From Thermoleophilaceae bacterium (GTDB lineage Bacteria > Actinomycetota > Thermoleophilia > Solirubrobacterales > Thermoleophilaceae), in NCBI GenBank assembly GCA_045805365.1, contig JBJMLJ010000270.1, positions 1 to 28,917 of the forward strand: a stretch of 28,917 nucleotides of DNA. Direction: 5' to 3'. Every line of letters begins with the position of its first letter. The stretch's first letter is position 1. Of this stretch, positions 104 to 16,370 are shown one piece after another. Under the pieces are notes generated by a model that saw nothing but the letters and a program-made list of their open reading frames with translations, ran no database searches and was not told the DNA's origin. Made by a program: the position numbers and the translations under genes.

Positions 104-1036
104 GTGAGCGGCGATTCGAAGACCGCGTTCCTCCTGCCCGGCCAGGGCTCCCAGAAGGTCGGGATGGCGGCCAAGCTGCGTGAGACCGACGCCGACCTGG
201 TCGACGGCTACCTGAAGCGCGCGGACGAGGCCTCGGGCCTCGACGTGAGCCAGTTCGTCGACGAGGGCCCGATGGAGATGCTCACCCGGACCGACGTCGC
301 CCAGCCGGCGCTCTTCTCGATCTCGATGGCGGTCGTGGAGGTGGCCCGCGAGCGAGGGCTGCGCGCCGACTTCGTCGCCGGCCACAGCCTCGGCGAGTAC
401 ACGGCGGCCGCCGTCTCGGGAGCGCTGGACGTCGACGACGCCTTGCCGCTCGTCTGCGAGCGCGGCCGGCTGATGGCGGCGATCCAGTCGGAGCGGCCTG
501 GCGCGATGGCGGCGATCATCGGGCTGGGCCGCGAGCAGGTCGAGGAGCTCTGCTCGCGGGCGTCGGAGGCCGGGTTGGTCGCCCCCGCGAACATCAACTC
601 CGACAGCCAGATCGTCGCTTCGGGCGAGGAGGGCGGGATCGAGAGGCTGATCGAGCTCGCCGAGGAGGCCGGCGCGAAGCGGGCGCTGCGGCTCCAGGTT
701 GGAGCCGCCTTCCACAGCGAGCTGATGAAGCCGGTCCAGGAGAAGCTCGCCGCGAGGATGGAGGGCCTCACCTGGCGGGACCCCGAGCCCCCGCTCGTGG
801 CCAACTGCTCGGGCGAGGTCGTCAGCACCGGCGACGGCGTCCGTGAGGCGCTCATCACCCAGATCGCCAGCCCGGTCCTCTGGGTCGACTGCGTGCGGAC
901 CCTGCGCCAGGCGGGCGTGAATACCTTCGTCGAGCTCGGCCCTGGCCGGGTGCTGACCGGCCTGGTGCGCCAGATCGACCCCGAGGCCGAGCTGGTGAAC
1001 GCGGACTCGCGGGAAGCCCTGGCTCCCAGCGCCTAG
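104..1036 (+). CDS. fabD: Malonyl-CoA:ACP transacylase (FabD/MCAT)
   Basis: Motifs LLPGQGSQ, TDVAQPAL, catalytic GHSLGEY, AFHS and ELGPG. Start moved from 29 to the in-frame GTG at 104 (VSGDSKTAFLLPGQG), matching the usual FabD N-terminus. Confidence 0.95.
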   Translation: MSGDSKTAFLLPGQGSQKVGMAAKLRETDADLVDGYLKRADEASGLDVSQFVDEGPMEMLTRTDVAQPALFSISMAVVEVARERGLRADFVAGHSLGEYTAAAVSGALDVDDALPLVCERGRLMAAIQSERPGAMAAIIGLGREQVEELCSRASEAGLVAPANINSDSQIVASGEEGGIERLIELAEEAGAKRALRLQVGAAFHSELMKPVQEKLAARMEGLTWRDPEPPLVANCSGEVVSTGDGVREALITQIASPVLWVDCVRTLRQAGVNTFVELGPGRVLTGLVRQIDPEAELVNADSREALAPSA

Positions 1037-1977
1037 CTCCCGAGTACCCAGCGGCCGTCCTCCTGCCGCAGGGTGACCCGGTCGCCGCCCTCGTCCAGCT
1101 CGATCGTCGCCTCGCCTGCATCCACGTCGATCTGCACGCGCAGGGAGACGGGCGTCCGCGGCTCGGGCTCTGGTTCCGGCTCGGGCTCTGGTTCCGGCGC
1201 GGCCTCGGGCGCGGCCTCGGGCTCCGGCACCTCGGTGTCCTGGACCCGGGGCGCCTCCTCGACCGGCGTCGGCGCCGGCGTGACCGTGTCCTGGGGCGGT
1301 CCCGAGGGCGGAGGCAAGTCCGCGGGCTCCGGCTCGTTCGGCGGCGGGGCCGGCGGGACGGGCGCCGGCGTCACGGTTTCCTGGGGCGGACCCGACGGCG
1401 GCGGCAGGTCGGTGGGCGCCTCGGGGCCGGGCTGAGCCGCGGCGGGGGGCGGCCCTGGGGGTCCCGGCGGCGGCGGCGGGGGCGCGTGCGGTCCGGCCGG
1501 CGGCGGCGCGCCTGGGTCCGCCGGGGGCATCTCCGCCGTGGGCTCGGGCTGGGGCACGAACGTGTCCGGGGTCGGCGAAGGCCCTTCGGCAGGCGGCTCG
1601 GGGACCGAGTCGGGGACGCTGGCGATCCGCGTCGCACCCAGACCCTCCGGCGGCCCGGATGCCTCCGGCTCGGGCGAGGGGGGCGGCGCCGACAGCTGAG
1701 TGACCATGCGCGTGCCGCCAACCTCGATCTGGTCACCATCGGAGAGCCGGTGCGGAGCGGCGAGCCTGTTGCCGTTCACGAACGTGCCGTTCATCGAGCC
1801 CAGGTCCTCGATGACCCAGGCGTCGCCCTGGCGTATGAAGCGCGCGTGCTGACGTGACAGCTCCGGATCGTCGGCGAGGCGGCCGTCCTCGGAGCCGGTC
1901 CTGCCGATGATCAACTCGTCGTCGACCGGGATCTGCTGGCCCGACGCGTTCCCCTCGATAACCATCAGCTTCAACAT
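1033..1977 (-). CDS. FHA-domain protein with long Pro/Glu-rich linker and small C-terminal domain
   Basis: N-terminal FHA signature IIGR...LSRQHARF...DLGSMNGTFVNG, then about 180 aa of Pro-rich low-complexity sequence and a roughly 40 aa tail. Starts 2 nt after the cyclase stop. Confidence 0.9.
   Translation of the reverse strand: MLKLMVIEGNASGQQIPVDDELIIGRTGSEDGRLADDPELSRQHARFIRQGDAWVIEDLGSMNGTFVNGNRLAAPHRLSDGDQIEVGGTRMVTQLSAPPPSPEPEASGPPEGLGATRIASVPDSVPEPPAEGPSPTPDTFVPQPEPTAEMPPADPGAPPPAGPHAPPPPPPGPPGPPPAAAQPGPEAPTDLPPPSGPPQETVTPAPVPPAPPPNEPEPADLPPPSGPPQDTVTPAPTPVEEAPRVQDTEVPEPEAAPEAAPEPEPEPEPEPEPRTPVSLRVQIDVDAGEATIELDEGGDRVTLRQEDGRWVLGS
1160..1198. repeat. Perfect 18-nt tandem repeat (ggctcgggctctggttcc x2) encoding a (PE)n tract of the FHA linker
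   Basis: Units at 1160-1177 and 1178-1195 are identical. Confidence 0.9.
1271..1410. repeat. Degenerate ~50-nt duplication, 90-nt period, encoding DLPPPSGPPQ(E/D)TVTPAP twice
   Basis: 1271-1320 and 1361-1410 encode near-identical peptides with synonymous differences. Confidence 0.85.
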
Positions 1978-1979
1978 GC

Positions 1980-2327
1980 TCAGCCCTCAGAGTCGGATGC
2001 GTCCCAACTGTAGAACTCACGCGCTTGGGCGTCCTTCGGGGACTTCCACGTCTCGGGGTTGTACGGCGTGATGTACGCGTCGAGCTTGCGGCTGATCTCC
2101 TGGAACAGGGGGTGATTGCGTACCTCGTCGACCGTCTCGCCGAACTCGGTGTCCATTTCCACGTAGTGGACGTAGATGTCATCCAGCACGAAGAGGCTCC
2201 GGTGCCGCACCTTGGCGAGCCCCGGGAGGTCGCTCTCGTCCGATTGCTCGAACAGCTTGGCGACCTCGTCCTCCGAGCCCGGCTTGATGCGGGCGATGAT
2301 GCAGCCTCGCTGGACGCCGTCAGCCAT
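1980..2327 (-). CDS. Polyketide cyclase, TcmI / WhiE-ORFVII family
   Basis: IIARIKPGSEDEVAKLFEQSD...RHRSLF...YITPYNPETWKSPKDAQAREFYSW follows the TcmI-family pattern as I recall it. Confidence 0.92.
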   Translation of the reverse strand: MADGVQRGCIIARIKPGSEDEVAKLFEQSDESDLPGLAKVRHRSLFVLDDIYVHYVEMDTEFGETVDEVRNHPLFQEISRKLDAYITPYNPETWKSPKDAQAREFYSWDASDSEG

Positions 2328-2784
2328 TCTTCGCGGCCTCCTCCAGGCGCTCCTTGATGACGCCCATCTGCTCCTTGGTGCTCTTGTTCATGTACTCCTC
2401 GGCGGTCGCATCGTCCGCGGGGGCGTCCGGCTTCATCGAGAAGTCCTGGACCCAGCGCATCTTGGTGGAGCCGTCCTCCTCCTCGAAGTACCACTCGATG
2501 TTCATGTACTCGAAGGGGCCGGTCTCGATCCGGCGTGACTTCGACTGGTAGTTCGCCGGGTCGGCCTCGCGCTCGGACACCCAGCTCCAGACCTGGCCGT
2601 CGTACTCCGGGTCCGGGTGGGTGGTCAGCCGGAACTTGACCTTGTTTTCGCCCTCCTCTTCGATCACCTCCGCCTTCGCGTACTCGCTGAAGAGGTTGGG
2701 CCAGCTCTCGATGTCCATCATCCGCTCCCACACGAAGTCGCGCGGGGCTTCGATGACCACCTCGTTGTCGGTGTGCGCGGCCAT
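2320..2784 (-). CDS. Aromatase/cyclase, SRPBCC fold, TcmN-N / WhiE-ORFVI family
   Basis: MAAHTDNEVVI..WPNLFSEY..VWSWVSER..ETGPFEYMNI.W..RWVQDF closely follows the recalled WhiE-ORFVI/TcmN aromatase sequence. Confidence 0.95.
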   Translation of the reverse strand: MAAHTDNEVVIEAPRDFVWERMMDIESWPNLFSEYAKAEVIEEEGENKVKFRLTTHPDPEYDGQVWSWVSEREADPANYQSKSRRIETGPFEYMNIEWYFEEEDGSTKMRWVQDFSMKPDAPADDATAEEYMNKSTKEQMGVIKERLEEAAKNG

Positions 2785-2787
2785 TGG

Positions 2788-3048
2788 CTACTCCTTCTCC
2801 GCCAGCCGGCGGTTGGTGTACTCGATCGCCTGTCCCACGGTCGTGATCTCCGAGGCGTCCTCGTCCGGGATCTCGAAGCCGTAGTCCTGCTGCATGGCGA
2901 GCTGGATCTCGACGAACGCCAGCGAGTCGAGGCCCATATCCTCGAAGCTGGCTTCGGGGTCGTTCGTCACGCTGTCCTCCGGGAGCCCGACGCGCTCCAC
3001 CAGGATCCGCTTGAGATCATCGAAGGTGAACTGCCGGTCCACTGACAT
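2788..3048 (-). CDS. Acyl carrier protein of the type II PKS
   Basis: 86 aa, acidic, GLDSL phosphopantetheine site; GGAGG RBS at 3056-3060 on the minus strand. Confidence 0.95.
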   Translation of the reverse strand: MSVDRQFTFDDLKRILVERVGLPEDSVTNDPEASFEDMGLDSLAFVEIQLAMQQDYGFEIPDEDASEITTVGQAIEYTNRRLAEKE

Positions 3049-3060
3049 AGGCGTGCCTCC

Positions 3061-4833
3061 TTAGGTTGGGACTCCGGTTTGGTGTTGCGGCTTGGCCAGG
3101 GCCTTCAAAGTCGGTAGCTGCTCCTCGATCGCCTCCCGGCCGGCCGCCAGGAAGAGGTCGGCGAGGTGGAAGTCGCGCCAGCTCCCAGGGCCGAAGCGGG
3201 GGTGGAGCACGACGTCCGCAAGCTCCGCGTGCCTGATGCTGCCGTCCTGCGCGGAGAGGTCGTTGACCTCGAGGATCGTCTCGAGCATGCGCGTGCCCTG
3301 CTTCTTCTCCTCCTGGGGCGGAGGCGGCTCCAGCCCCGGCCAGGCGGGCAGGCTCTCGCGCGGCATCAGGTTCATGGAGACGACCACGTCGGCGCCCGCC
3401 TCGTAGGCCGCTCCGCTCGGCACCGGGACGAGCGCCAGCCCATCCACGAGCCGATGGCCCTCCATCTCGTACGGGGGGGCCATGCCGGCCAGCGCAGTGG
3501 CCGCCATCAGCGCCTCCCACAGGGGGCCGTCGCTGATCGGCGATGGGCGCCGCTCGGTCAGGTCGACCGCCATCGCCACCAGCGGGATCACGAGGTCGTC
3601 GAAGGTGCCGTTGTTGGTGGTGTCGCGGAACACCTGCTCGATCGTCTCCAGGCCCTTTGACGCACCCGCGAGGGTGAGCGTGAACAGCTCAGCCACGTTG
3701 TCGGGGTTGAACGCCTCGCGCAGGGTGCGGTCGACCTCTGACGAGTCCATGCCCATCGCCAGGTAGGCGCCGGCGATCGCGCCGATGCTGCTGCCGGCCA
3801 CGTAGTCGACTACGTAGCCCTCGCGCTCGAGACCCTGCAGCAAGCCCACGTGCGCGTAGCCCTTCGCCCCGCCCGCGCCGAGCGCCAGACCCAGCTTCGT
3901 GCGGGCCAGATGGCGGCCGAGCCAGGCCACGTCCTCCGGCGGGAGCGACCCGTTGTCCCTGCCGATCGAGCGGATCACCGGCAGGCCGGCGACCATGCGG
4001 CCGCGCTCGCGACCGCGCTGCTCCTCGACGAGCACGAGCTCGACGCGCCGACCCTCGAGCTCCTCCATTTGCGCGACGCTGGCGGCGTCCGGCTCGCCGT
4101 CGGCCAGAACGACGATCCGGTCGGTGTGCTCCCCGAGCTGCTGAGCGGAGCGGCCCTCGGCCCGCGCCGCCACCACGACCGTGCCGTGCCTCTCCAGCAT
4201 CTGGTCGATCCGCGCGACGGCCTCGTGGAAGCCCGTGCGCGTGTCGAGCCAGTCGACCTTGCGCGGGCTGGCCTTGCCGGCGGCCTCCACGACCTGCGGG
4301 ACGAGGTCGGCCAGGGAGCTGCTGAAGATCAGCCCGACGGCCTCGCCGCTCGACTCCTCCTCGGTCGCGCCCTGGTACGCGCGCAGCAGGCGACGCCGCA
4401 TGATCTTCGTGAAGTTGACGACGATCCCCGGGTGCTCCTCCATGAGCCGCTCGAAGTCCTTGCGCGACATCTCGAGCGCGCTCACATAGGAGCTGGCCAC
4501 CACCGTGACCGTGTGCCGGTCGCCCGTGACGAGCGACGTCGCCCCGATCACGTCGCCACGGCGCTGCTTGGACACCACGCGCTGGTCACCGGTCCCCGGC
4601 ATCGCCTGCGCCACTCCCTCGACGATCAGGAACATCGTCTCCCCGCGCTTGCCGGCACGCGAGATCTCGGCGCCGGGCGGGAAGCTGACCGGCTGCATCC
4701 GCTCCGAGATCCGGGCGAGCGCGTCGGTGTCCAGGCCGTCGAAGAGGGTGCACTGCTCGAGCGCGGCGAACGGCGACAGCGCGCCCGCCATCGACATCGA
4801 GGACATCAGCCGGTCGGTGGGGATCTCAGGCAT
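3061..4833 (-). CDS. cNMP-binding domain + patatin-like serine hydrolase (NTE-like architecture)
   Basis: N-terminal CAP-type fold (FPPGAEISRAG...MFLIVEG...GDVIG); C-terminal patatin motifs GAGGAKG, GSSIG and DGL. Start moved from 5070 to the ATG at 4833, which overlaps the ligase stop by 8 nt. Confidence 0.9.
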   Translation of the reverse strand: MPEIPTDRLMSSMSMAGALSPFAALEQCTLFDGLDTDALARISERMQPVSFPPGAEISRAGKRGETMFLIVEGVAQAMPGTGDQRVVSKQRRGDVIGATSLVTGDRHTVTVVASSYVSALEMSRKDFERLMEEHPGIVVNFTKIMRRRLLRAYQGATEEESSGEAVGLIFSSSLADLVPQVVEAAGKASPRKVDWLDTRTGFHEAVARIDQMLERHGTVVVAARAEGRSAQQLGEHTDRIVVLADGEPDAASVAQMEELEGRRVELVLVEEQRGRERGRMVAGLPVIRSIGRDNGSLPPEDVAWLGRHLARTKLGLALGAGGAKGYAHVGLLQGLEREGYVVDYVAGSSIGAIAGAYLAMGMDSSEVDRTLREAFNPDNVAELFTLTLAGASKGLETIEQVFRDTTNNGTFDDLVIPLVAMAVDLTERRPSPISDGPLWEALMAATALAGMAPPYEMEGHRLVDGLALVPVPSGAAYEAGADVVVSMNLMPRESLPAWPGLEPPPPQEEKKQGTRMLETILEVNDLSAQDGSIRHAELADVVLHPRFGPGSWRDFHLADLFLAAGREAIEEQLPTLKALAKPQHQTGVPT

Positions 4834-6136
4834 GGAGGGCGGCGCGGTCGGGCTTGCCCGAGGCCAGCAGCGGCAGCTCGGGCACGATTTCGATCTCGTA
4901 GGGCAGCTTGTAGCCGGCGATCCGCTCGCGGGCGAAGTGCAACAGGTCGGCCGGCGCCAGGTCGGCCTCGGTGACGACGAAGGCCTTGAGCGCCTCGCCC
5001 ATGCGCTCGTTGGGAACGGCGACGACGGCCGCCTGGCGGACGTCTGGATGCGTGAGCAGGCAGCCCTCAACCTCGGCCGGGAAGACGTTGAAGCCGCCGA
5101 CGTGCGCGACCTCCTTGGCCCGCCCGGAGATGTGGACGTTGCCGTCCTCGTCGATCGAGCCGAGGTCGCCGGTCCGGAACCAGTCGCCGTCGAAGGCCTC
5201 GGCGGTCAGCTCGGGCTTGCGGAAGTAGCCGGGGGTGACGCCCGGGCCGCGCACCTGGATCTCCTCGCGCTCTACGCGGAACTCGAAGCCGGGCAGCGGG
5301 CGGCCCACCGAGCCGTGGCGCACCTCCGGCGGGTCGTCGGGCCGGCAGCTGGCCGCGGCGCCCAGCTCGGTCATCCCGAAGAGGTTGAGGATCCTGGCGC
5401 CGGCGTCGTCCAGGCGCCCGAGCAGCTCGGCGGGGCAGACCGCCCCGGCGACGAAGCCGCCGCGCAGCCGGGGCGGGAGCGCCCGCAGCAGGCCAGCGAA
5501 GAGCGTGGGGGAGCCGTGGACGATCGTCGCCTCGGGGTCGATGCCGTCGAGGGCGAGGCCCGGCTCGAGCATCTGGACGCGCGCACCCGCGTGAAGCCCG
5601 GCGAGCAGCGCGGCGAGGCCGAAGGCATGGGAGGCGGGCACGGGAAGGGCGATCACGTCGTCCTCGCTCAGCTCGAGGACGCCGGCCAGCACCTCCGCCT
5701 GGTCGGCCAGCGCCGCCCGCGTGACCAGCGCGCCCTTGGGCTCGCCGGTCGTGCCGGAGGTGTAGAGGATCGCGCCGACGTCCGGATCACACGGCTCTGT
5801 GTCCTCTGCCACCTGTCCTATGCCGTCCTGGCCGAGCACGAGCCACGGCAGCTCGCTTCCCCTCGCGAACTCGGCGAACGAGTAGCCCCGATGCTCCGCG
5901 ACCGACAGGACGAGCGCCGGGTCGGCGTCCGTGAGTATTCGGCCGAGGTCGTACTCGCGCAGCCGCGCGCTCAGGGGAACGGGGACCGCGCCCGCCCTCC
6001 AGGCGGCGAGCAGCGCCGTTCGGAGCAGCGGTTCGTTGGGCGCGACGATCGCCACGCGGGCGCCGTGGCCGGGGAGCCTGGCCGCCAGCTCTTCGACTGC
6101 GGCGGAGTCCTGGCCGAGGTCCGCGAGGTCCAGCAT
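4826..6136 (-). CDS. AMP-dependent acyl-CoA/acyl-ACP ligase (ANL superfamily)
   Basis: YTSGTTGEPKG, FGMTE, FRTGDLG, GRAKE and YKLP motifs; short N-terminus (436 aa). Confidence 0.92.
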   Translation of the reverse strand: MLDLADLGQDSAAVEELAARLPGHGARVAIVAPNEPLLRTALLAAWRAGAVPVPLSARLREYDLGRILTDADPALVLSVAEHRGYSFAEFARGSELPWLVLGQDGIGQVAEDTEPCDPDVGAILYTSGTTGEPKGALVTRAALADQAEVLAGVLELSEDDVIALPVPASHAFGLAALLAGLHAGARVQMLEPGLALDGIDPEATIVHGSPTLFAGLLRALPPRLRGGFVAGAVCPAELLGRLDDAGARILNLFGMTELGAAASCRPDDPPEVRHGSVGRPLPGFEFRVEREEIQVRGPGVTPGYFRKPELTAEAFDGDWFRTGDLGSIDEDGNVHISGRAKEVAHVGGFNVFPAEVEGCLLTHPDVRQAAVVAVPNERMGEALKAFVVTEADLAPADLLHFARERIAGYKLPYEIEIVPELPLLASGKPDRAALHA

Positions 6137-6143
6137 CAGGGCC

Positions 6144-9187: not shown

Positions 9188-9271
9188 GGGGCGCGCTCCT
9201 CGTCGCTGCGCGGACGTTCCGAACCTACATGCGGCACGCGGCGGCTGTCAACGAGGGGTTAGGGTTGGCCC

Positions 9272-9568
9272 GTGCCCGCCCGCTTCGTCCTCGAGTTCCA
9301 GGCCCAGCCCGGCAAGGAGGAGGACGTGCTGCGCGCCTACTCCGCGCTGCGCGAGCGGCTGGCCCAGGGCGTGCCCGGACTTCTGGGACACCAGCTCTGC
9401 CAGAACGTCGACGATCCCGACCGCTGGATCATCACCAGCGAGTGGGAGGACCTGGAGAGCTCGGCGGGCTGGGACCGCTCGGAGGAGCACAACAAGCTGG
9501 TCGGCCCCCTGCGGGAATGCTTCGCGAGCGCCGGCTCGACGAAGTTCACCGTGCGGAACGGGATCTGA
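9272..9568 (+). CDS. Antibiotic biosynthesis monooxygenase (ABM) domain protein
   Basis: GLLGHQLCQNVDDPDRWIITSEWE...SEEH resembles the N-terminal ABM domain of WhiE-ORFI/SchA/CurD. Confidence 0.85.
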   Translation: MPARFVLEFQAQPGKEEDVLRAYSALRERLAQGVPGLLGHQLCQNVDDPDRWIITSEWEDLESSAGWDRSEEHNKLVGPLRECFASAGSTKFTVRNGI

Positions 9569-9569
9569 G

Positions 9570-10085
9570 CTACTCGCCGGCGTGAAGCAGCCGGTACTGC
9601 CCGGCGTGGAAGAGCAGAGGCTCGACCTCGGGGTCCGCTCCCAGGGCCACGACCTCGCCGATGAAGATCAGGTGGTCGCCGGCCTCGTGCTCGGCGTGCA
9701 GCAGGCAGTCCAGGAAGCCGGCCGCGCCGTCGAGGATCGGCGAGCCGGTGACCTCCTTGCGGTGAGGGACGCCCCGGAAGGCGTCGCGGCCCTTGGGCCG
9801 GTCCTTCGAGGCGAAGAAGCGCGAAACGGGCTCCTGCTCGGAGCCCAGGATGTTCACCGCGAAGCAACCGTTGCGGCGCAGGATGTCGGCGCCCGTCGCC
9901 GTGCTGCCGATGCAGATCAGGATCAGTGGCGGGTCGAGCGAGACGGAGGTGAACGCGTTGGCCGTCATCCCGTAGGCGTGGTCCTCGCCTCGGGTCGTAA
10001 TGACGTTGATGCCGGTCGCGAAGCCGCCCACGGCGTCGCGGAAGTCCCGGCCGGTGAAGGTCTGGGAGTCGCCTCTTTCAGCCAC
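9570..10085 (-). CDS. Flavin reductase, HpaC-like
   Basis: FRDAVGGFATGINVITT, GMTANAFTSVSLDPPL and AGDHLIFIGEV motifs. Confidence 0.93.
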   Translation of the reverse strand: MAERGDSQTFTGRDFRDAVGGFATGINVITTRGEDHAYGMTANAFTSVSLDPPLILICIGSTATGADILRRNGCFAVNILGSEQEPVSRFFASKDRPKGRDAFRGVPHRKEVTGSPILDGAAGFLDCLLHAEHEAGDHLIFIGEVVALGADPEVEPLLFHAGQYRLLHAGE

Positions 10086-10091
10086 GTGTGG

Positions 10092-10952
10092 CTATTCGGT
10101 CTGGCCGAGCCGCTCGAGCCGGGCGCGCACCACCTGGTCGAAGTCCCCGGTGGTGCCGAGCGAGCCGGCCACGACGTCGCGGAAGGTGTCTCGCTCCATG
10201 GCGAGCAGCTTGGTGGGCTCAGCCGCCCTGAGCGTCGAGTTACGAGGCGTATCGCGCATGATCGAGATCTCGCCGTGGAGCTCGCCCGGCCCGAGTGAGC
10301 CGACCTGCTCGTCGTCCCGCAGGACGTCGACCTTGCCCTCGACCACGATGAAGAACTTGTCGGCGGGGGCTCCCTCGCGGACGATCACCTCGCCCGCGTC
10401 GGCCTCCATGCTCTGGAGCTCGCCGCTGATCGTCTCCTCGACGTCCTCCGGCAGCTCGTCGTAGACGTTGAGGACGGTCTCACGGTCGTAGTCGACCCCG
10501 AACTCCTCGCTCGACTTCTCGCCGCTGCCCCTGGAGTTGTCGATGAACTCGAGCTGGGTGGGGACGATCTTCATGAAGTAGATGCCCACGGTGGAGCGGC
10601 CGGCCGCAAGGGTCGGGAACTTGCCGCCGAACAGGAAGGCGGCGCGCGCGATCTCCTCGCCGTCGAGGACGACCCCGCATTCCCCGTTGGCCTGGATCCC
10701 CTTCGTCTGGCGCCAGTCCTCGGAGTACTCGTCGATCGCCAGCGAGACGAACGGGTTCTGCTGGACGTGCTTGGCGGTGATCGTCTCCGGCCGCACCCAG
10801 AGGTACATCGTGGGGCCGCGGTTGACGTAGAGGAAGGTCGCGGCACGCGGAACGCCGCCCGCGGAGGCGGTCGCGAGCGTCAGGGTCTGCTGCTGCTCCA
10901 GGTAGTCGAGCACGTGCTGTGGCAGCTCCAGGGCTGCCTTGTCTTCAGCCAT
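10092..10952 (-). CDS. PNPOx-like split-barrel domain fused to a cNMP-binding domain
   Basis: N-terminal TLTLATASAGGVPRAA...KHVQQNPFVSLAID; C-terminal GEVIVREGAPADKFFIVVEG...GELHGE...PRNSTLRA. Start moved to the ATG at 10952, which follows a GGAGAGGAGG RBS. Confidence 0.85.
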   Translation of the reverse strand: MAEDKAALELPQHVLDYLEQQQTLTLATASAGGVPRAATFLYVNRGPTMYLWVRPETITAKHVQQNPFVSLAIDEYSEDWRQTKGIQANGECGVVLDGEEIARAAFLFGGKFPTLAAGRSTVGIYFMKIVPTQLEFIDNSRGSGEKSSEEFGVDYDRETVLNVYDELPEDVEETISGELQSMEADAGEVIVREGAPADKFFIVVEGKVDVLRDDEQVGSLGPGELHGEISIMRDTPRNSTLRAAEPTKLLAMERDTFRDVVAGSLGTTGDFDQVVRARLERLGQTE

Positions 10953-11061
10953 TCGCGTGCCTCCTCTCCTTCTCGATCGAAGGCGCACGCTATCGCAGGT
11001 TGCGGCCCCCGGCAGGACGCGAATAGTCTCGCCCGACTGTCGACCTGGGATGGAGTGAACC

Positions 11062-11799
11062 TTGGATTTGGGACTGAGCGGCAAGAGGGCGGTTGTGACC
11101 GGCGGCTCGCGGGGGATCGGCCGCGCGATCGTGCTCGGGCTGGCGGAGGGCGGGGCGTCGGTTGCCGCCTGCTTCAACCGCGAGTCCGACGACGTCAAGC
11201 AGCTGCGCGGCGAGCTCGAGCAGATCGAGGGCGAGAGCTACCTGACCCAGGCGGATGTGTCCGACCCGGATTCGGCGACGGGGTTCGTCGGCGAGGCAGC
11301 GGGCAAGTTCGGCGGACTCGACATCCTCGTCAACAACGCCGGGGTCGTCAGCCATCAGATGATCCAGGACCTCTCGCTCGAGGAGTGGCACCGCGTCATC
11401 GACGTCAACCTCACCGCGATCTTCCTGATCTCGAAGGCCGCGCTGCCTCACATGGGCGAGGGCGGCTCGATCGTGAACATCACCTCAGCGGTAGCGATGC
11501 GCGGCATGCCGGCCCGGACGCACTACATCTCGTCCAAGGCCGGGCTGATCGGGTTCACGCGCGCCCTGTGCAAGGAGGTCGGCAAGGACGGCATCCGCGT
11601 GAACGCGCTGGCCCCCGGGATCATCGAGACCGACCAGACGGCCGGCCTGGACGAGGCCGGCCGCGCCCGCTACTCGGGCCTGGCCGCCCTGAACCGGCTC
11701 GGGCAGTCGGAGGAGATCGCCACCGTGGCGTTGTTCCTGGCCAGCGACCTGGCGAGCTTCGTCTCGGGCGTGACCCTGAACGTGGACGGCGGGATCTAG
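11062..11799 (+). CDS. SDR ketoreductase, resembling BenL/PdmG/FdmO-type polyketide KRs
   Basis: TGGSRGIG, NNAG, YxxxK (HYISSK) and VDGG motifs. MDLGLSGKRAVV start, VSH and RTHY resemble pentangular-polyketide KRs from memory. Confidence 0.88.
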   Translation: MDLGLSGKRAVVTGGSRGIGRAIVLGLAEGGASVAACFNRESDDVKQLRGELEQIEGESYLTQADVSDPDSATGFVGEAAGKFGGLDILVNNAGVVSHQMIQDLSLEEWHRVIDVNLTAIFLISKAALPHMGEGGSIVNITSAVAMRGMPARTHYISSKAGLIGFTRALCKEVGKDGIRVNALAPGIIETDQTAGLDEAGRARYSGLAALNRLGQSEEIATVALFLASDLASFVSGVTLNVDGGI

Positions 11800-11804
11800 G
11801 CGGC

Positions 11805-12158
11805 TTACGCCTCCGCCACCCTCTTCCCGGTCTCGTCGATCGAGTAGGTCTCCGTGAACACCGGGCCGGTGAACATGTGCATCGTGTAGTTCTCGGGCTC
11901 GTGGGCGTTCTCGAAGAACTCGCCGAAGCGCTCTACGGCCTTCTTGTGGTATTCGGCCTCCGTGCTCGCGAGCAGGTCCTCCTCGCCCTCCCAGAGGGTG
12001 ATCGAGAGGGCCTTGCCGGAGTCGAAGTCGACCATCGAGACGGCGCCCATGAAGCCCTCGCGGGACTTCGTGATCGGGAGGATGTTCTCGTACCAGAGGT
12101 TGAGGCCCTCCTGGACCTTTCCCTCTGGGGCCTGAACGTGGGTAACACGGCAGAACAT
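11805..12158 (-). CDS. ABM-like dimeric alpha+beta barrel protein
   Basis: 117 aa; GFMGAVSMVD...ALSITLWE pattern; AAAGGAG RBS upstream. Confidence 0.7.
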   Translation of the reverse strand: MFCRVTHVQAPEGKVQEGLNLWYENILPITKSREGFMGAVSMVDFDSGKALSITLWEGEEDLLASTEAEYHKKAVERFGEFFENAHEPENYTMHMFTGPVFTETYSIDETGKRVAEA

Positions 12159-12283
12159 GTAAGGCGTCTCCTTTGTGGCGGGGTGCGTCGAGTCCCTGGT
12201 CGAGCGATCCTAAACCGCGATCGGGGCCCTGTGAAGCTCTCTTGCGGCAGCCCGGCATACGGGTTAGGTTCGCGCCGGTCCCC

Positions 12284-12589
12284 ATGGTTCGCGCAAGTCT
12301 CTACATGAAGGTGAAGGAAGGCCGCGGCGCCGAGTTCGAGGAGGCCTGGAACCAGATCGCGCAGGAGGTCAGGAAGGCACCGGGCAACCTCCGCCAGGCC
12401 CTGACACGGGATCCGGACGACCACGACAGTTTCGTCGTGACGAGCGACTGGGAGGACCGTGAGACCTTCGGGAAGTTCGAGACGAGCCCGGAGCAGGACG
12501 ACCTCACCGCGCCGCTGCGCGACCTGCGCGAGTCCGCCCGTATGACCGTCCACGAGCTCGTGACCCACATCGAACGAGGAGATGATTGA
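12284..12589 (+). CDS. ABM domain protein
   Basis: MKVKEGRGAEFEEAW...PGNLRQAL...FVVTSDWEDRETF. Start moved from 12173 to the ATG at 12284. Confidence 0.85.
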   Translation: MVRASLYMKVKEGRGAEFEEAWNQIAQEVRKAPGNLRQALTRDPDDHDSFVVTSDWEDRETFGKFETSPEQDDLTAPLRDLRESARMTVHELVTHIERGDD

Positions 12590-12915
12590 TGCCCGCACGG
12601 GTGATGGTGTTCGCAAAGATCAACCGGGGCGACGAGGAGGCCTTCGAGGAGGCGTACGCCCAGGTCACGGCGAACGTCAAGGGCACCGAGGGCCACATCG
12701 CCGACGAGCTGCTCCGCCGCAACGAGCCGCCCGACGACGAGGACGAGCCTCGCAGCTACGTCCTCCTCAGCGAGTGGGAGAGCAAGGATGCCTTCCTCGC
12801 CTGGGAGAACGCCCCTGTCCACACCGAGAAGCGCAACCCGATGACGCCCTACTGGACCGGGAAGGTCGAGCGCATCATCTGGGACGTGGCGCACACCATC
12901 AAGCAGGGGGCCTGA
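12586..12915 (+). CDS. ABM domain protein
   Basis: EEAFEEAY...GHIADELLR...YVLLSEWESKDAFLAWE...H; overlaps the upstream gene. Confidence 0.85.
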   Translation: MMPARVMVFAKINRGDEEAFEEAYAQVTANVKGTEGHIADELLRRNEPPDDEDEPRSYVLLSEWESKDAFLAWENAPVHTEKRNPMTPYWTGKVERIIWDVAHTIKQGA

Positions 12916-12916
12916 G

Positions 12917-13225
12917 ATGGCGCTCTACGCCCGCATCAACGAGACCAAGTGGAACCCGGAGCGGGTCGACGAGGGGATCAAGCTCACCGAGGACACGATC
13001 ATCCCGGCCTACCAGGAGCATCCCGGCTTCAAGGGCTACATCCTGCTCACGGACCCGGGGGGCGACGGCGCGATCGCGATCACGATGTGGGACAGCGAGG
13101 AGAACAGGGAGTCGAGTGCCGGGATCGCGAGGGCGATGATCGGCGAGCTCAAGGGCATCCTCCGCGCCCCGCCCGACACGAGGAACTTCGAGGTCATGTT
13201 CAACGTCCAGCCGGAAGGAGACTGA
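12917..13225 (+). CDS. ABM-like barrel protein
   Basis: IIPAYQEHPGFKGYILLTD...AITMWDSEE; same pattern as 11805-12158; 1-nt spacing to both neighbours. Confidence 0.75.
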   Translation: MALYARINETKWNPERVDEGIKLTEDTIIPAYQEHPGFKGYILLTDPGGDGAIAITMWDSEENRESSAGIARAMIGELKGILRAPPDTRNFEVMFNVQPEGD

Positions 13226-13226
13226 G

Positions 13227-13598
13227 ATGTCCCAGTGGGTGGCGCTCATGTGGGGCATCAAGCCCGAGAGCCGCGACGCGGTCCGCGAGCTGTTCCACAA
13301 CTACGGCCGGCCGGATCACACGATCAAGGACGAGGACGGCAACGAGGTCGGCACCCTGCTCCAGACCCTCGTCTTCATGAAGGACAACGACGTCATCCGG
13401 GTCGTCGAGACGACCGACGGCGTCGACCTGCCGACGCTCGCCAAGCACATGGGCCGGCAGCAGGCGATCCGCGACCTCGAGGACCAGCTCGACCCGCACA
13501 TCGCGGAGACGCGCGACATGTCGACGCCGGACGGCGCCCGCGAGTTCTTCGTCAAGAGCCTCATGGAGCTGCTCGTGACAAGGCGGCACGACGAGTGA
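13227..13598 (+). CDS. Standalone SchA/CurD-like domain protein
   Basis: VFMKDNDVIRVVE...KHMGRQQAIRDLEDQLDPHIAETRDMSTPDGAREFF matches the recalled SchA/CurD repeat of WhiE-ORFI. Confidence 0.82.
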   Translation: MSQWVALMWGIKPESRDAVRELFHNYGRPDHTIKDEDGNEVGTLLQTLVFMKDNDVIRVVETTDGVDLPTLAKHMGRQQAIRDLEDQLDPHIAETRDMSTPDGAREFFVKSLMELLVTRRHDE

Positions 13599-14470
13599 GC
13601 GCCGGGGGACCGCCCGGCGGCGGACCTCCCGGAGGCGGCCCCCCCGGCGGCGGGCCGCCGACGCCGACGATCGAGATCGACGAGCAGAGGGTCACCGATT
13701 TCGACTCGCTGTTCCGGCTCGACGGCAGGAGAGCGATCCTCGTCGGTGGCTATGGCGGCATCGGCGAGATCACGAGCCGCCTCCTGGCGGACCACGGCGC
13801 CGAGGTGGCGATCGCGGGTCGCAACGAGGACAAGGCCAGGGCACTGGCCGAGGAGATCTCGGGCGATGGCGGCAGGGCGATCGGGTTGCGCGTCGACATC
13901 GCCGATCGCGATAGCGCGCAGGCGCTGGTCAAGAGCACCGTGGACGAGCTGGGCGGGGTCGACGTGCTCGTCAACTTCGCCGGCATCGACAACGAGGCGC
14001 CGGCCGAGGACTTCGACGAGGACGAGTTCCGCCAGGTGATCGAGATCAACCTGAACGGCGCCTTCTGGCTCTCCCAGGCGGCCGGCCAGGTGATGATCGA
14101 CCAGGGCCGCGGCGGCCGGATCATCCACTACTCGACGACCCGCGCGATGGCGGGCGGGCGCAAGGGCTTCGCCGCCTACGCTTCGAGCAAGGCGGGCCTC
14201 AACGGGCTGATCCGCCAGCTCGCCACCGAGTGGGGCAAGTACCGGATCGCGGTGACCGGCGTGGCCCCGGGCTTCGTCCCCACCGAGCTGGTGGCCGGGG
14301 CGATGCAGCAGGAGTGGTTCGTGAACATGATGCTCAACCGGATCCCCTTCGGCCGCTTCGGCGAGCCGATCGAGCTGGCCGGGGCCACCCTGTTCCTGGC
14401 CTCGCCGGCGGCGAGCTTCATCACCGGCCAGGTCATCTATGTCGACGGAGGGGTGGTGGCGAGCTCGTAA
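13595..14470 (+). CDS. SDR oxidoreductase (gluconate-5-dehydrogenase-like) with N-terminal (GGGPP)4 extension
   Basis: GGYGGIG, NFAG, YASSK and VDGG motifs. True start is most plausibly the GTG at 13595 (GTGA overlap with the upstream stop). Confidence 0.88.
   Translation: MSAGGPPGGGPPGGGPPGGGPPTPTIEIDEQRVTDFDSLFRLDGRRAILVGGYGGIGEITSRLLADHGAEVAIAGRNEDKARALAEEISGDGGRAIGLRVDIADRDSAQALVKSTVDELGGVDVLVNFAGIDNEAPAEDFDEDEFRQVIEINLNGAFWLSQAAGQVMIDQGRGGRIIHYSTTRAMAGGRKGFAAYASSKAGLNGLIRQLATEWGKYRIAVTGVAPGFVPTELVAGAMQQEWFVNMMLNRIPFGRFGEPIELAGATLFLASPAASFITGQVIYVDGGVVASS
13604..13660 (+). repeat. Coding repeat GGPP-GGGPP-GGGPP-GGGPP
   Basis: Pro-pair codons differ between units (ccg ccc / cct ccc / ccc ccc / ccg ccg). 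Confidence 0.9.
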
Positions 14471-15384
14471 TGGCCGACAAGGACCAGCGGATCGCATATA
14501 TCGGCCTCGGAGTGATGGGGGCCGGAATGGCCGCCCGCCTGGCGGAATCCGGCTATGACGTGAGCGTCTACAACCGAACCCGGTCGAAGGCGGAGGAGGT
14601 AGCGGACGACGTCGAGGTCACGGTGGCCGACTCTCCCGCGGACGCGGCCCGCGAGGCCGACGTGGTGATGATGAGCCTCGCCGACCAGAACGTGGTCGAG
14701 AAGATCGTCTTCGGCGACGACGGCGTCGCGAGCTCGCTCGCGAGCGGGGCCTATCTCGTCGACATGAGCACGGTACCACCGGCGTATGCGCGCGACCTGG
14801 CCGAGCGCAGCTCGGCCGCCGGGCACAAGGCGCTCGACGCCTGCGTGCTGGGAGCGCCCTTCCACGCCCGCTCCGGCGACCTGCGCGTGATGGTCGGCGC
14901 CCAGGAGGACGACTTCAAGGCGCTCGAGGGGATCTTCGAGACGATGGGCAAGGACGTCACCTATCTGGGCGGCAATGGTATGGGCGCGACCATGAAGCTC
15001 GTCCTCAACATGCTCATGGGCGTCCAGATGCCGGCGCTCGCGGAGGCCGTCGTGTTCGGCGAGCGCGCGGGCCTGCCGCGGGACAAGATCCTCGAGATGA
15101 TCGCCCAGAGCGGCTACAGCTCGCCGGTTATGGCTTTCCGCTGCATGCTGATGAAGGAGCGGAAGTTCGAGGACCCCTCGTTCAAGCTCGCGCTCATGCG
15201 CAAGGACATGATGCTCGTGCTGGACGTGTGCAAGGAGCTCGACGTGCCGCTGCCGGTCTCGGAGACGGCCTACTCGATGCTCACGGCGGCCAAGCAGCAG
15301 GGCCTCGGGGACCTCGACGTCGCCGCGATCCTCGCCTTCCAGGAGCGGATGGCGGGGCTGGAGGGCTATCCGTGGCCGGAGTAG
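14470..15384 (+). CDS. NAD(P)-dependent beta-hydroxyacid dehydrogenase (3-hydroxyisobutyrate DH family)
   Basis: YIGLGVMG, YNRT, VDMST, LDACVLG and catalytic-Lys motif MKLVLN. Start is the ATG at 14470 (TAATG coupling). Confidence 0.9.
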   Translation: MADKDQRIAYIGLGVMGAGMAARLAESGYDVSVYNRTRSKAEEVADDVEVTVADSPADAAREADVVMMSLADQNVVEKIVFGDDGVASSLASGAYLVDMSTVPPAYARDLAERSSAAGHKALDACVLGAPFHARSGDLRVMVGAQEDDFKALEGIFETMGKDVTYLGGNGMGATMKLVLNMLMGVQMPALAEAVVFGERAGLPRDKILEMIAQSGYSSPVMAFRCMLMKERKFEDPSFKLALMRKDMMLVLDVCKELDVPLPVSETAYSMLTAAKQQGLGDLDVAAILAFQERMAGLEGYPWPE

Positions 15385-16370
15385 TCGACGCCCACGGCCA
15401 CATCACCCACCCCGAGCTCCTCAAGCGCTACCCGATGCCGCCGGTGCTGGGCGACATCGAGGGAATGCTCGACCGAAAGTCCGCCGCCGGCATCGACGTG
15501 ACCGTCGTGGGCAGCCCGGTGGGGTTCGGGACCATGAGCAAGCGCGGGCACGACAACTACGCCCAGCCGTTCGACGAGCTCAAGGAGTTCCACGACTGGC
15601 TGGCCGAGACCGTCCGGAAGTACTCGCCGCGCCTGGCCGCCTACGCCTACACCAATCCGTTCGGCGGCGACGAGCTGCTCGAGTACACGGCTCAGACGGT
15701 CCGCGACGGCGGGTTCGTCGGGCTGATCGTCAACACGAGCGTCAAGGGCGAGTACCTCGACTCGGAGAAGGCGGACCCGTTCTTCGAGATGGCGGCCGAG
15801 CTCGGCAAGCCGGTCTTCCTGCATCCACCCGCGGAGCCCGTCGGCAGCGACAGCCTCGGCGACTTCCGGCTGGTAGAGCAGGTCGGCCGCTTCATGGACG
15901 TCACGGTGGGGCTGGCCGCCCTGGTCTTCGGCGGTCGATCGGAGCAGTACCCGGAGCTGCCGTTCGTGGCCGCGACCGCCGGCGGGGCGATCTCGCTGCT
16001 CGCCGGGCGGCTCGACTCGGCCTATCAGCCGCGTCACTGGAAGGGCGGTGGACCGCCCGGCGGCGGGCCCCCGGGCGGCGGCCCCCCGATGGCGCAGTAT
16101 GAGAACAAGATCACCGAGCCGCCCAGCAAGTTCCTCGCGAACATCTACGTGGACACGGCCAACTCCAGCATCCCCAACCACCTGGCGAACCTGGAGCTGA
16201 TGGGAACCGGCCACATCCTCTTCGGAAGTGACAGCCCGCCGCTGTCGACGCCGCTCGACGAGGCGATCGCCATGGTCGAGAAGCTGCCCATCTCCGAGGA
16301 CGAGAGGCAGCAGATCCTCTCAGGCAACGCGCGCCGCCTGTTCGGGCTGAACGGCGACGGCGCGGGCTGA
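15372..16370 (+). CDS. Amidohydrolase_2 family protein (ACMSD/aromatic-acid decarboxylase-like)
   Basis: DAHGH, FLHP, GRLD and LFGSDSP metal-site motifs; ILSGNARRLF C-terminus. Start is the GTG at 15372, overlapping the upstream stop. Confidence 0.88.
   Translation: MAGVVDAHGHITHPELLKRYPMPPVLGDIEGMLDRKSAAGIDVTVVGSPVGFGTMSKRGHDNYAQPFDELKEFHDWLAETVRKYSPRLAAYAYTNPFGGDELLEYTAQTVRDGGFVGLIVNTSVKGEYLDSEKADPFFEMAAELGKPVFLHPPAEPVGSDSLGDFRLVEQVGRFMDVTVGLAALVFGGRSEQYPELPFVAATAGGAISLLAGRLDSAYQPRHWKGGGPPGGGPPGGGPPMAQYENKITEPPSKFLANIYVDTANSSIPNHLANLELMGTGHILFGSDSPPLSTPLDEAIAMVEKLPISEDERQQILSGNARRLFGLNGDGAG
16044..16088 (+). repeat. Coding repeat (GGGPP)3 inside the amidohydrolase
   Basis: ggc ggt gga ccg ccc / ggc ggc ggg ccc ccg / ggc ggc ggc ccc ccg. 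Confidence 0.9.

Follow-up and report, generated by a model that had tools for sequence, protein, structure and literature searches.

The window analysed here is one whole contig of 28,917 nucleotides, and the cluster ends at either side may be cut. It contains a minus-strand operon of nine genes, which encode a cupin, KS-alpha, CLF, an ANL ligase (LIG), a cNMP-patatin protein (PAT), an ACP, a WhiE/TcmN-type cyclase, a TcmI-type cyclase, and an FHA-domain protein. A FabD gene is convergent with this PKS operon. The features are listed below.

2–1036, plus strand: FabD-type malonyl-CoA:ACP transacylase (Pfam Acyl_transf_1, 1.7e-44), open at its 5' end, where the contig begins
1033–1977, minus strand: FHA-domain protein, last gene of the operon (Pfam FHA, 5.4e-19)
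1980–2327, minus strand: TcmI-type polyketide cyclase (Pfam Cyclase_polyket, 4.3e-37)
2320–2784, minus strand: monodomain ARO/CYC of WhiE/TcmN type (Pfam Polyketide_cyc and PDB search)
2788–3048, minus strand: ACP (Pfam PP-binding, 9.9e-14; LDSL motif with the DSL serine)
3061–4833, minus strand: PAT (Pfam cNMP_binding and Patatin)
4826–6136, minus strand: LIG, short ANL adenylate-forming ligase of 436 aa (Pfam AMP-binding and AMP-binding_C)
6144–7418, minus strand: CLF (KS-beta; Pfam; 408 bits to act KS-beta, 1TQY_B)
7418–8779, minus strand: KS-alpha (Pfam; 499 bits to act KS-alpha, 1TQY_A)
8783–9187, minus strand: TcmJ/WhiE-ORFII-type cupin, which opens the operon (Pfam Cupin_2, 1.1e-16)
9272–16370: tailoring block (Pfam: four ABM genes, flavin reductase, PNPOx-cNMP fusion, two SDR ketoreductases, SchA/CurD, small gene unk1, HIBADH-like reductase, amidohydrolase)
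19798–21374, plus strand: two ABC-2 permease genes (Pfam ABC2_membrane)
21362–22543, 24078–25262, and 25277–26461, minus strand: three FAD monooxygenases (Pfam)
22726–24039, plus strand: P450 (Pfam)
26721–28511, plus strand: flavin-dependent halogenase (GxGxxG at residue 28, WIWMIP at residue 253)

All genes named in a first-pass annotation of this DNA (KS-alpha, CLF, ACP, the TcmN-, TcmI-, and TcmJ-type cyclases, and FabD) are present by Pfam. The tight coupling it described is evident from the ORF coordinates, which give junctions of +3, -1, +7, -8, +12, +3, -8, and +2 nt from the cupin to the FHA gene. The ligase and cNMP-patatin genes that it placed between CLF and ACP, a stretch of about 3 kb, are real, and the distance from the CLF stop to the ACP start is 3,095 nt. 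The ACP gene, found as a single copy in the window, begins 12 nt after the PAT stop and has the ribosome-binding site AAGGAGG. The FHA gene does close the operon, and its product consists of an FHA domain (residues 1–92) followed by a Pro-rich low-complexity tail. An FHA gene likewise follows the TcmI gene in a genome of the same genus (G622), and FHA genes lie at most 10 kb away in 24 of the 49 loci of the family described below. The FabD protein scores above the cut-off of NCBIfam TIGR00128 fabD (290 bits versus 260.9). Because a second FabD is present elsewhere in the genome, on contig C296, the cluster FabD is an extra copy; a FabF fragment is also found elsewhere in the genome.

The order of whiE ORFII–VII is cupin, KS-alpha, CLF, ACP, ARO/CYC, and TcmI-like cyclase. 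The earlier assignment of a WhiE-type cluster agrees with this order and with the ARO/CYC, which scores 181 bits against 3tl1, 3tvr, and 2kf2, which we take to be the Streptomyces coelicolor WhiE ARO/CYC, compared with 150 bits for TcmN and 48 bits for ZhuI. The TcmI-type cyclase matches 8is2 and TcmI (1tuw) at about 1e-22. The cupin gene precedes KS-alpha in 42 of the 49 family loci.

The tailoring-block genes recur in three other loci (L012, L071, and L097), and homologues of the ABC-2 permeases flank the cluster in locus L002, together with an FHA-ABC ATPase. FAD monooxygenase and P450 homologues are present in related clusters. The best PDB matches of the halogenase are all halogenases (PltA, CmlS, ChlB4, tetracycline 7-halogenase, and CndH), and copies with 60–69% identity occur in 18 family loci. 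The span first proposed for the cluster, 104–16370, holds for its core elements, but the end at 16370 is arbitrary, as the conserved monooxygenase, P450, and halogenase genes run to at least 28511. This is a complete and probably functional whiE-like type II polyketide cluster. The host is an uncultured soil actinobacterium of the Thermoleophilia, with a RecA that shows 87–90% identity to RecA of metagenome-assembled genomes labelled Thermoleophilaceae, which bears out the suggestion that it might not be a streptomycete.

Ketosynthase pair, PAT, and LIG

The active-site Cys-197 of KS-alpha is intact (STGCTSG). A 23-residue insertion at approximately residues 96–118 is common only to locus L062 and, partly, L025. 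The match of both subunits to their act counterparts indicates that KS-alpha and CLF are a true pair. At the Cys/Gln site, Gly-175 of the CLF aligns with the Gln of the act (actinorhodin) CLF, and this Gln is linked to decarboxylative priming. All CLFs of the family contain the motif EG(A/T)G(G/A/S), with Gly at the equivalent position, and other CLF lineages also lack the Gln and have Glu, Ser, Ala, Gly, or Arg instead. The idea that this Gly marks a ligase-supplied starter was rejected, because it occurs both with and without LIG.

PAT (590 aa) consists of a cNMP-binding domain, a middle domain similar to ParA/MinD in which the Walker A motif is absent, and a patatin Ser-Asp hydrolase domain. 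The AF2 model has a pLDDT of 80, and the nearest folds are the phospholipases PlpD and CapE/CapV, the latter being CBASS effectors. With such neighbours a lipid substrate is conceivable, counter to the reading we prefer below. All 80 relatives compared share an identical oxyanion motif, GAGGAKG, and none of them has lost the GxSxG serine or the D-G/A motif Asp, which indicates selection on catalysis. The cNMP domain shows weak matches to the NCBIfam Pat model and to CRP/PKA-R domains. In the window PAT the phosphate-binding cassette reads GATSLVTGDRHTVTV, with the canonical Glu and Arg replaced, so that the pocket is degenerate and nucleotide gating may be lost here. Because of this degeneracy, control of the window PAT by cAMP or cGMP is doubtful. 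The genome encodes 18 class III nucleotide cyclase domains, and a nucleotide cyclase gene directly adjoins the cluster in L002.

The nearest PDB entries for LIG are feruloyl-CoA synthetase, MatB malonyl-CoA synthetase, oxalate-CoA ligase, and FadD. None of the NCBIfam models reaches its cut-off with LIG, and the best rows, every one below cut-off, are FadD-type fatty-acid ligases. LIG is short, and a FAAL-type insertion was not seen in its sequence. One explanation for the two genes is extender supply, with LIG as a MatB-like malonyl-CoA synthetase and PAT as an acyltransferase that helps to charge the ACP; patatin and FabD belong to a common fold superfamily. MatB structures are among the best solved relatives of LIG (4fuq, 5.6e-47; 3nyq, 8e-42), and the NCBIfam malonyl-CoA synthase subfamily model gives 216 bits. 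However, this score is far under the model cut-off of 558 bits, feruloyl-CoA and oxalate-CoA ligases match LIG as well as MatB does, and the cluster has its own FabD, so we regard extender supply as improbable. The MatB kin among the nearest structures suit extender supply as well as they suit priming.

Conservation of the layout

A PAT relative is encoded in 421 species genomes, and locus layouts were counted on the best 80 of these PAT loci. In 49 of them the PAT gene separates CLF from ACP, together with LIG in 41 and without it in eight, and in all 49 it is immediately upstream of the ACP gene. Where LIG is missing from these loci, PAT comes straight after CLF with a gap of at most 75 nt. 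The 49 loci, in which PAT is translationally coupled, cover at least four phyla, with representatives in Solirubrobacterales, Gaiellales, Thermoleophilaceae, Planctomycetota, and Acidobacteriota and a PAT identity of 42–61%. The KS-CLF phylogeny first proposed as a check was run as a CLF tree, in which the PAT-adjacent CLFs group as a single clade (SH-aLRT 93); every one of them has Gly in place of the Gln. On this tree the layout has a single origin, and CLF-(LIG)-PAT-ACP is the conserved, ancestral order of the whole family. The four nearest outside CLF representatives belong to cupin-KS-CLF clusters without PAT.

The first-pass annotation had read the operon as rearranged, which would make it a one-off local change to a whiE cluster on this contig. 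KS, CLF, and ACP genes are normally adjacent in whiE-type clusters, and L093 and L094, half of the four outside clusters examined, have the ACP gene right after CLF. Against this stands the same order in the 49 loci of a single CLF clade, and its spread over the groups named above refutes a one-off event, to which we assign next to no probability. Nor is the 3-kb stretch a single inserted unit, since PAT is kept where LIG is missing. A literature search for a characterized cluster with the order CLF-LIG-PAT-ACP found none, and the PAT-embedded layout, shared by dozens of uncultured species among those examined, marks a conserved, uncharacterized family that has not previously been described.

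The presence of LIG has changed, by loss or gain, at least three times in the family. In G622 it is absent and PAT directly follows CLF, yet the tailoring genes ABM4, unk1, SchA, and SDR2 are still 92–96% identical to those of the window. LIG is therefore dispensable for the scaffold; PAT is the constant part of the family and LIG the variable one. A clade of 28 rows in the PAT tree, rooted at its midpoint, has support 100 and is found in a KS-free cluster, which shows that a PAT subclade was recruited into a second pathway. This cluster encodes a ligase and an 89-aa carrier protein, along with an acyl-CoA dehydrogenase, two halogenases, and Trp-pathway genes. What both contexts offer PAT as a partner is thus a carrier protein (with a ligase) rather than a ketosynthase.

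These contexts bear on whether PAT takes part in the pathway at all. It might be co-expressed without touching the intermediates, as a signal-controlled phospholipase that serves, for instance, membrane remodelling during pigment deposition or export, or as a regulator; its cNMP-patatin architecture resembles NTE/RssA-type lipases (JGI names), and its nearest folds are phospholipases. We consider such a role quite unlikely, because 49 loci spread over at least four phyla keep PAT in the same coupled place between CLF and ACP, PAT is inherited together with a single CLF clade, and its second context again has a ligase and a carrier protein.

A candidate step in loading or unloading of the synthase

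The reading that we prefer, and to which we give about an even chance, is that PAT is a hydrolase or transferase acting on ACP-bound acyl groups, LIG an accessory ACP/starter loader, and the product a halogenated aromatic compound. A release step is normally absent from type II PKSs. PAT would act on the ACP thioester, either freeing the completed or cyclised chain by hydrolysis (release) or removing wrongly primed acyl groups in the manner of ZhuC or EncL (editing). Where present, LIG would act like EncN, adenylating a carboxylic acid and charging the same ACP with this alternative starter. In relatives whose pocket is canonical, the N-terminal nucleotide-binding domain could put the PAT step under signal control. 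An unreduced long chain (>C16) would then be folded by the WhiE-type, TcmI-type, and cupin cyclases and decorated by the ABM and FAD oxygenases, the P450, the ketoreductases, and the halogenase, which would work with the flavin reductase as a two-component system, before export by the ABC-2 permeases. Because of these cyclases and tailoring enzymes, the most likely product is a polycyclic aromatic compound that is halogenated and heavily oxygenated. The PAT layout implies a candidate extra step in the loading or unloading of the synthase, in which PAT might serve loading, editing, or release.

A lipid-derived starter is also conceivable: PAT would free a membrane fatty acid, and a FadD-like LIG would activate it and load it on the ACP, giving an alkyl-primed aromatic polyketide of the kind exemplified by hexanoate-primed benastatin. 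The phospholipase folds nearest to PAT, the FadD-type ligases at the top of the sub-cut-off rows for LIG, a CLF without the Gln tied to decarboxylative priming, and the lack of a FabH-like priming KS by Pfam in the window are consistent with this, and a patatin gene without an assigned role adjoins the FAAL-primed puwainaphycin cluster (PMC4219810). However, PAT is kept without LIG in eight loci and in G622, the short LIG lacks the FAAL-type insertion, and the KS-free pathway with its Trp genes, to which one PAT clade belongs, offers no obvious place for a fatty-acid starter. On balance a lipid starter seems unlikely, if somewhat less so than extender supply or a PAT outside the pathway.

The cluster resembles whiE of S. 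coelicolor (ORFI–VIII) and its sch/cur relatives in the ORFII–VII order, in having the WhiE ARO/CYC as its nearest solved relative, and in the SchA/CurD (ORFI-type) gene and a FAD halogenase/hydroxylase-type gene. It differs in that LIG and PAT separate CLF from ACP, that the CLF has Gly as its Cys/Gln-site residue, that ORFI-type domains are spread over small separate genes, that tailoring genes are far more numerous, and that the host belongs to the Thermoleophilia, a class that is not known to form pigmented spores. With pentangular polyphenol clusters of the benastatin, fredericamycin, and pradimicin type it shares the TcmN/TcmI/cupin cyclase trio and an SDR ketoreductase beside ABM genes, and the nearest outside CLF (L093) is from a pentangular-looking cluster with Asn synthase, glycosyltransferase, KR, and ABMs. 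In contrast to that type, the window has neither a FabH-like priming KS nor an amidotransferase, and PAT is absent from the four outside clusters examined.

Like NTE/RssA-type cNMP-patatins, CBASS CapV/CapE, and the mycobacterial cAMP-activated acetyltransferase Pat, PAT joins its patatin core to a nucleotide sensor; those proteins act on membrane lipids or proteins outside biosynthetic operons, and the window PAT lacks the canonical Glu and Arg of the cassette. Non-acetate-primed type II PKSs use the EncN ligase as a loader together with EncL, or the AT-like ZhuC, as an editing thioesterase, and an EncN-like ANL ligase can load an ACP directly (review PMC12664062, section 6). The same logic of a ligase and an ACP-policing hydrolase is seen in enterocin EncN (benzoate:ACP ligase) and EncL and in the R1128 acyl-ACP thioesterase ZhuC (PMC12664062). 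PAT differs from EncL and ZhuC as a patatin Ser-Asp hydrolase with nucleotide-binding and ParA-like domains, neither an alpha/beta-hydrolase type II thioesterase nor a FabD homologue, and, unlike the EncN/EncL pair, it lies inside the minimal PKS operon and is retained even without the ligase.

Gene content of the contig

The window is a whole contig (C270, 28,917 bp, GC ~68%) of a source MAG of 3.44 Mb with a completeness of 93.5%. Genes were called from codon-position GC and inspection of start sites, and they were annotated with Pfam. The core gene set claimed in the first-pass annotation is present. It consists of nine genes on the minus strand, running from a cupin to an FHA protein, together with a FabD gene that is convergent with them.

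Genes of the core operon, with FabD and the halogenase (window coordinates, strand where assigned)
9187-8783, minus: cupin of the TcmJ/WhiE-ORFII type
8779-7418, minus: ketosynthase (KS-alpha)
7418-6144, minus: chain length factor (CLF, KS-beta)
6136-4826, minus: ANL ligase, 436 aa (LIG)
4833-3061, minus: cNMP-domain/patatin protein, 590 aa (PAT)
3048-2788, minus: acyl carrier protein (ACP)
2784-2320, minus: aromatase/cyclase (ARO/CYC) of the TcmN/WhiE type
2327-1980, minus: TcmI-type cyclase
1977-1033, minus: FHA protein
2-1036, plus: FabD, above the NCBIfam fabD cut-off
26721-28511: flavin-dependent halogenase, with GxGxxG and WxWxIP motifs

The operon junctions, in gene order, are +3, -1, +7, -8, +12, +3, -8 and +2 nt. 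Another FabD and a FabF fragment are encoded elsewhere in the genome, so the FabD at 2-1036 is an extra, cluster-linked copy, and its assignment as a housekeeping gene was ruled out. The FHA protein of the operon has a long Pro-rich tail in which Q(E/D)TVTPAP units are duplicated.

By Pfam, the remainder of the contig encodes four ABM monooxygenase-like genes, a flavin reductase, a PNPOx-cNMP fusion, two SDRs and a HIBADH-like reductase. There are also three FAD monooxygenases, a P450 and the flavin-dependent halogenase, as well as a SchA/CurD gene, an amidohydrolase, a DedA protein, an AhpC-like protein and two ABC-2 permeases. Cluster genes continue beyond 16370, where the cluster had been thought to end. 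A second FHA gene is truncated, and a secreted protein of 555 aa without a Pfam match (17228-18895, plus strand) carries a signal peptide, Gly/Asn-rich beta-helix-like repeats and a C-terminal third that is very rich in Lys and Arg. An open reading frame of 332 aa at 21551-22549 (plus) was rejected as spurious, being an antisense frame of the third FAD monooxygenase (21362-22543, minus).

The KS-alpha matches the actinorhodin (act) KS-alpha (1TQY chain A) with 499 bits and keeps the active-site Cys in the sequence STGCTSG. The CLF matches the act KS-beta (1TQY chain B) with 408 bits, and in its AEGAGG motif Gly-175 is aligned to the act Gln. The ACP is discrete and carries the phosphopantetheine Ser in LDSL. 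A Cys-bearing KS-alpha, an adjoining Cys-less CLF and a discrete ACP are thus all present, as in a type II (aromatic) minimal PKS. The best PDB matches of the ARO/CYC are 3tl1, 3tvr and 2kf2 (181 bits), which we take to be the WhiE cyclase, followed by TcmN (150) and ZhuI (48). By these matches it is a WhiE-type ARO/CYC, monodomain and of the C9-C14 class. In the PDB, TcmI is matched by the TcmI-type cyclase.

The RecA of the genome, encoded on contig C408, shares 87-90% identity with the RecA proteins of MAGs labelled Thermoleophilaceae by NCBI, and genome G430 belongs to the same GTDB family. These data make the host an uncultured member of the Thermoleophilia and not a streptomycete, which bears out an earlier suspicion.

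Distribution of the CLF-PAT-ACP arrangement

Among more than 1,000 full-length metagenomic homologues of PAT, the best 120 show 46-88% identity, and every one of them has the cNMP plus patatin architecture. In a set with one genome per species, a PAT relative is encoded in 421 genomes. The window's proteins were mapped onto the best 80 loci of these genomes, and in 49 of the 80 PAT is situated directly upstream of ACP and a TcmN-type cyclase. The ligase lies between CLF and PAT in 41 of these 49 loci. The other eight contain no ligase, and there PAT follows CLF within 75 nt. The order CLF-(LIG)-PAT-ACP, described in the first-pass annotation as rearranged, is therefore a family trait and no rearrangement. 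Carriers are mostly labelled Solirubrobacterales, Thermoleophilaceae or Gaiellales, but labels of Planctomycetota (loci L008, L009 and L011), Acidobacteriota (L026 and L046) and others also occur.

The CLFs of the family form one clade (SH-aLRT 93), and all have Gly at the site equivalent to Cys/Gln, within the motif EG(A/T)G(G/A/S). CLF cluster representatives outside the family have Q, E, S, A, G or R at this site. Four of the nearest outside representatives were examined, and they belong to cupin-KS-CLF clusters with TcmN- and TcmI-type cyclases. No patatin was found in these four clusters, and in two of them (L093 and L094) the ACP directly follows the CLF. The window's KS-alpha contains an insertion of 23 residues at about positions 96-118 (window 8420-8495) that is common only to locus L062. 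The KS-alpha of L025 has a different insert of 19 residues at the same site, and more than 40 other KS-alphas of the family have no insertion.

The distribution of the family is patchy. As lower bounds, since thresholded searches can miss broken copies such as those of genome G017 (broken KS, CLF and LIG matches), a sample of 400 other genomes from the host's order yielded KS-alpha in 3, each of them a member of the host's own family, and a sample of 400 genomes from the host's class yielded PAT in 1. The G017 locus (L097, G017:C1:382000-401999), from a genome of the same order, has the full cluster, with the KS-alpha match split in two and partial CLF and LIG matches; these represent either pseudogenes or long-read frameshifts. 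The trees are at odds on the direction of transfer between phyla: members from outside the actinobacteria take nested positions in the PAT tree, which is midpoint-rooted, but branch at the base of the CLF tree, which is rooted with an outgroup.

In a genome of the same genus, G622, the tailoring genes ABM4, unk1, SchA and SDR2 (L095, G622:C50:1-20000) are 92-96% identical to window 9272-14470. The core operon of this locus is far more divergent (PAT 44%, CLF 68%, KS 74%) and is without a ligase. The combination of near-identical tailoring genes with a divergent core indicates that the cluster is a mosaic, in which the core was swapped by recombination. In L002, from a Thermoleophilaceae MAG, a gene for a class III nucleotide cyclase (14155-14739) abuts the cluster, which also adjoins rpmF-plsX-acpP. 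The window's own genome encodes 18 class III nucleotide cyclase domains.

A second context of PAT is seen in about 23 of the best 80 loci, which contain no KS. In L020 (2172-18619), the neighbours of the PAT paralogue are two halogenases, a PRPP synthetase and TrpF-, TrpC-, TrpD- and TrpA-like genes, along with a 515-aa ANL ligase, an 89-aa carrier protein, an ectoine-synthase-like cupin and an acyl-CoA dehydrogenase. About 22 loci resemble L020 (for example L013, L029, L047 and L060), and this uncharacterised cluster is conserved in Solirubrobacterales MAGs. The PATs of the KS-free context form one clade with a support of 100, nested among the PKS-context PATs in the midpoint-rooted tree. In two unrelated pathways, PAT thus occurs together with a carrier protein and a ligase. 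By analogy, we infer that the ligase, carrier protein, acyl-CoA dehydrogenase and halogenase of L020 recall the carrier-bound halogenated-pyrrole module of pyoluteorin-type pathways, and a module of that kind has to be unloaded. The PNPOx-cNMP fusion and flavin reductase (window 9570-11198) accompany PAT in both the PKS and the halogenase/Trp contexts (L003, L018, L052, L070, L071, L078 and L080), and the flavin reductase of this pair probably feeds the halogenase.

Architecture and putative role of PAT

The AlphaFold model of PAT (pLDDT 80) consists of three domains. The cNMP-binding domain covers about residues 20-150 (Pfam 1.2e-14). Its phosphate-binding cassette reads GATSLVTGDRHTVTV, in which the conserved Glu and Arg of a functional cNMP sensor (GE...PR[ST]A) are replaced by Ala and His. 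The canonical cassette GE(M/L)..PR(S/T)ATV is kept in about 20 PKS-context relatives, so that the label "cNMP-gated" is plausible for the family but doubtful for the window's PAT. The L015 and L011 proteins are examples of relatives with the canonical form, GE..PRSATV. The middle alpha/beta domain (residues 163-295) resembles ParA/MinD-type NTPases in weak matches, and no Walker A motif was found in it. The patatin domain (residues 300-580) is nearest to PlpD (TM 0.83-0.85, normalised to the target) and to the CBASS lipases CapE and CapV. It has the Gly-rich oxyanion motif, the GxSxG nucleophile and the D-G/A Asp of a patatin-like hydrolase. All 80 PAT sequences compared share one and the same oxyanion motif, GAGGAKG. 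Every one of them also retains the GxSxG serine, as GSSIG in 75, and the catalytic Asp, as VDGLAL in 45. An apparent PAT-ACP fusion, P0074 (L001:10001-12049), was rejected; it is probably an assembly artefact, as frame breaks occur throughout the contig and the C terminus of PAT is out of register.

PAT is constantly partnered by the ACP, but not by the KS or by the ligase, which is absent from eight PKS-context loci and was gained or lost at least three times on the PAT tree. On this sequence evidence, PAT is best read as a putative acyl-ACP hydrolase or transacylase; that it is a pathway-independent lipase is a less probable rival reading. In one role, PAT would release the finished chain from the ACP. 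In another, it would edit the ACP in the manner of ZhuC, an AT-like thioesterase, and EncL, a type II thioesterase. With either role, LIG would be an accessory loader of the EncN kind. ZhuC and EncL edit the ACP in type II PKSs that are not primed with acetate (PMC12664062).

A strict starter-unit reading is weakened by several observations. Gly-175 of the CLF was considered as proof of a non-acetate starter and rejected, because every CLF of the family has this Gly, whether LIG is present or absent, and because E, S, A, G or R occurs at the site in other CLF lineages. G622 lacks LIG, yet its tailoring genes are nearly those of the window. Among the nearest solved relatives of LIG are malonyl-CoA synthetases, alongside ligases of aryl and fatty acids. 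Extender supply and a lipid-derived starter route are rival readings of lower probability.

Type II PKSs make tetracyclines, anthracyclines and many pigments. To our knowledge, their minimal machinery (KS, CLF and ACP) is treated as fixed, with no dedicated release enzyme, and we know of no dedicated enzyme for ACP off-loading or proofreading in these systems. A literature search for a link between patatins and type II PKSs or aromatic polyketides found nothing relevant. No study characterising a type II PKS of Thermoleophilia was found either, the only related item being an antiSMASH count in one 2026 preprint. The window represents a whiE-like lineage of type II PKSs to which a conserved core component of putative role has been added. 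In this one CLF lineage, from many uncultured soil Thermoleophilia and some Planctomycetota and Acidobacteriota, a patatin hydrolase with intact catalytic motifs is always situated between CLF and ACP.

If PAT loads, edits or unloads the ACP, it would be a new core component of type II PKSs, and any action on the ACP could make it a tool to get such synthases working in heterologous hosts. If the sensor domain is functional, the assembly line would be under the direct control of a signal, which is rare. A wider proposal, to which we assign a low probability, holds that in this lineage the minimal PKS has PAT as an obligatory fourth subunit, dedicated to ACP off-loading or proofreading. Members with an intact pocket would then put aromatic polyketide output under direct post-translational control by a second messenger, and the module would later have been reused to unload the carrier protein in an unrelated halogenated indole/pyrrole-type pathway.

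Predicted product and comparison with known systems

The presence of WhiE-type, TcmI-type and cupin cyclases implies that the chain is long and unreduced and does not follow the logic of an early C9 ketoreductase. Residues Asn-123, Gly-126 and Ile-130 of the CLF align where the act gate has F/T/F, with the published act numbering (F109/T112/F116) mapped onto the chain by an assumed offset of eight residues. The N/G/I combination would fit a chain longer than C16, without specifying its exact length. The eleven best PDB matches of the halogenase are halogenases or their homologues, a partner Flavin_Reduct gene is present in the cluster (9570-10085), and 18 loci of the family contain copies of it with 60-69% identity. 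The halogenase ends in the tail PPGGGPPAGVGPPA (window 28467-28505). On these features, the product is likely a halogenated, heavily oxygenated polycyclic aromatic. The family is an untapped source of probably halogenated aromatics, in a class with almost no cultured producers.

Once LIG and PAT are set aside, the order of the operon is that of whiE ORFII-VII. In whiE clusters KS, CLF and ACP adjoin one another, whereas in the window the order cupin-KS-CLF-ACP-ARO/CYC-TcmI-like is kept but LIG and PAT (3,095 nt) part the CLF from the ACP. Pentangular polyphenol PKSs are characterised by a chain of C24 or longer, a C19-type ketoreductase and fifth-ring cyclases of the ABM type; in the window an SDR adjoins ABM genes, and the product may be either pentangular or like a spore pigment. 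In the EncN/EncL-type module a ligase puts the starter directly on the ACP and the editing hydrolase is an alpha/beta-hydrolase or an AT-like thioesterase, whereas the window has a ligase and a patatin, which belongs to another family. The ligase and hydrolase of the window may work like EncN and EncL, as a likeness and not as membership of that module.
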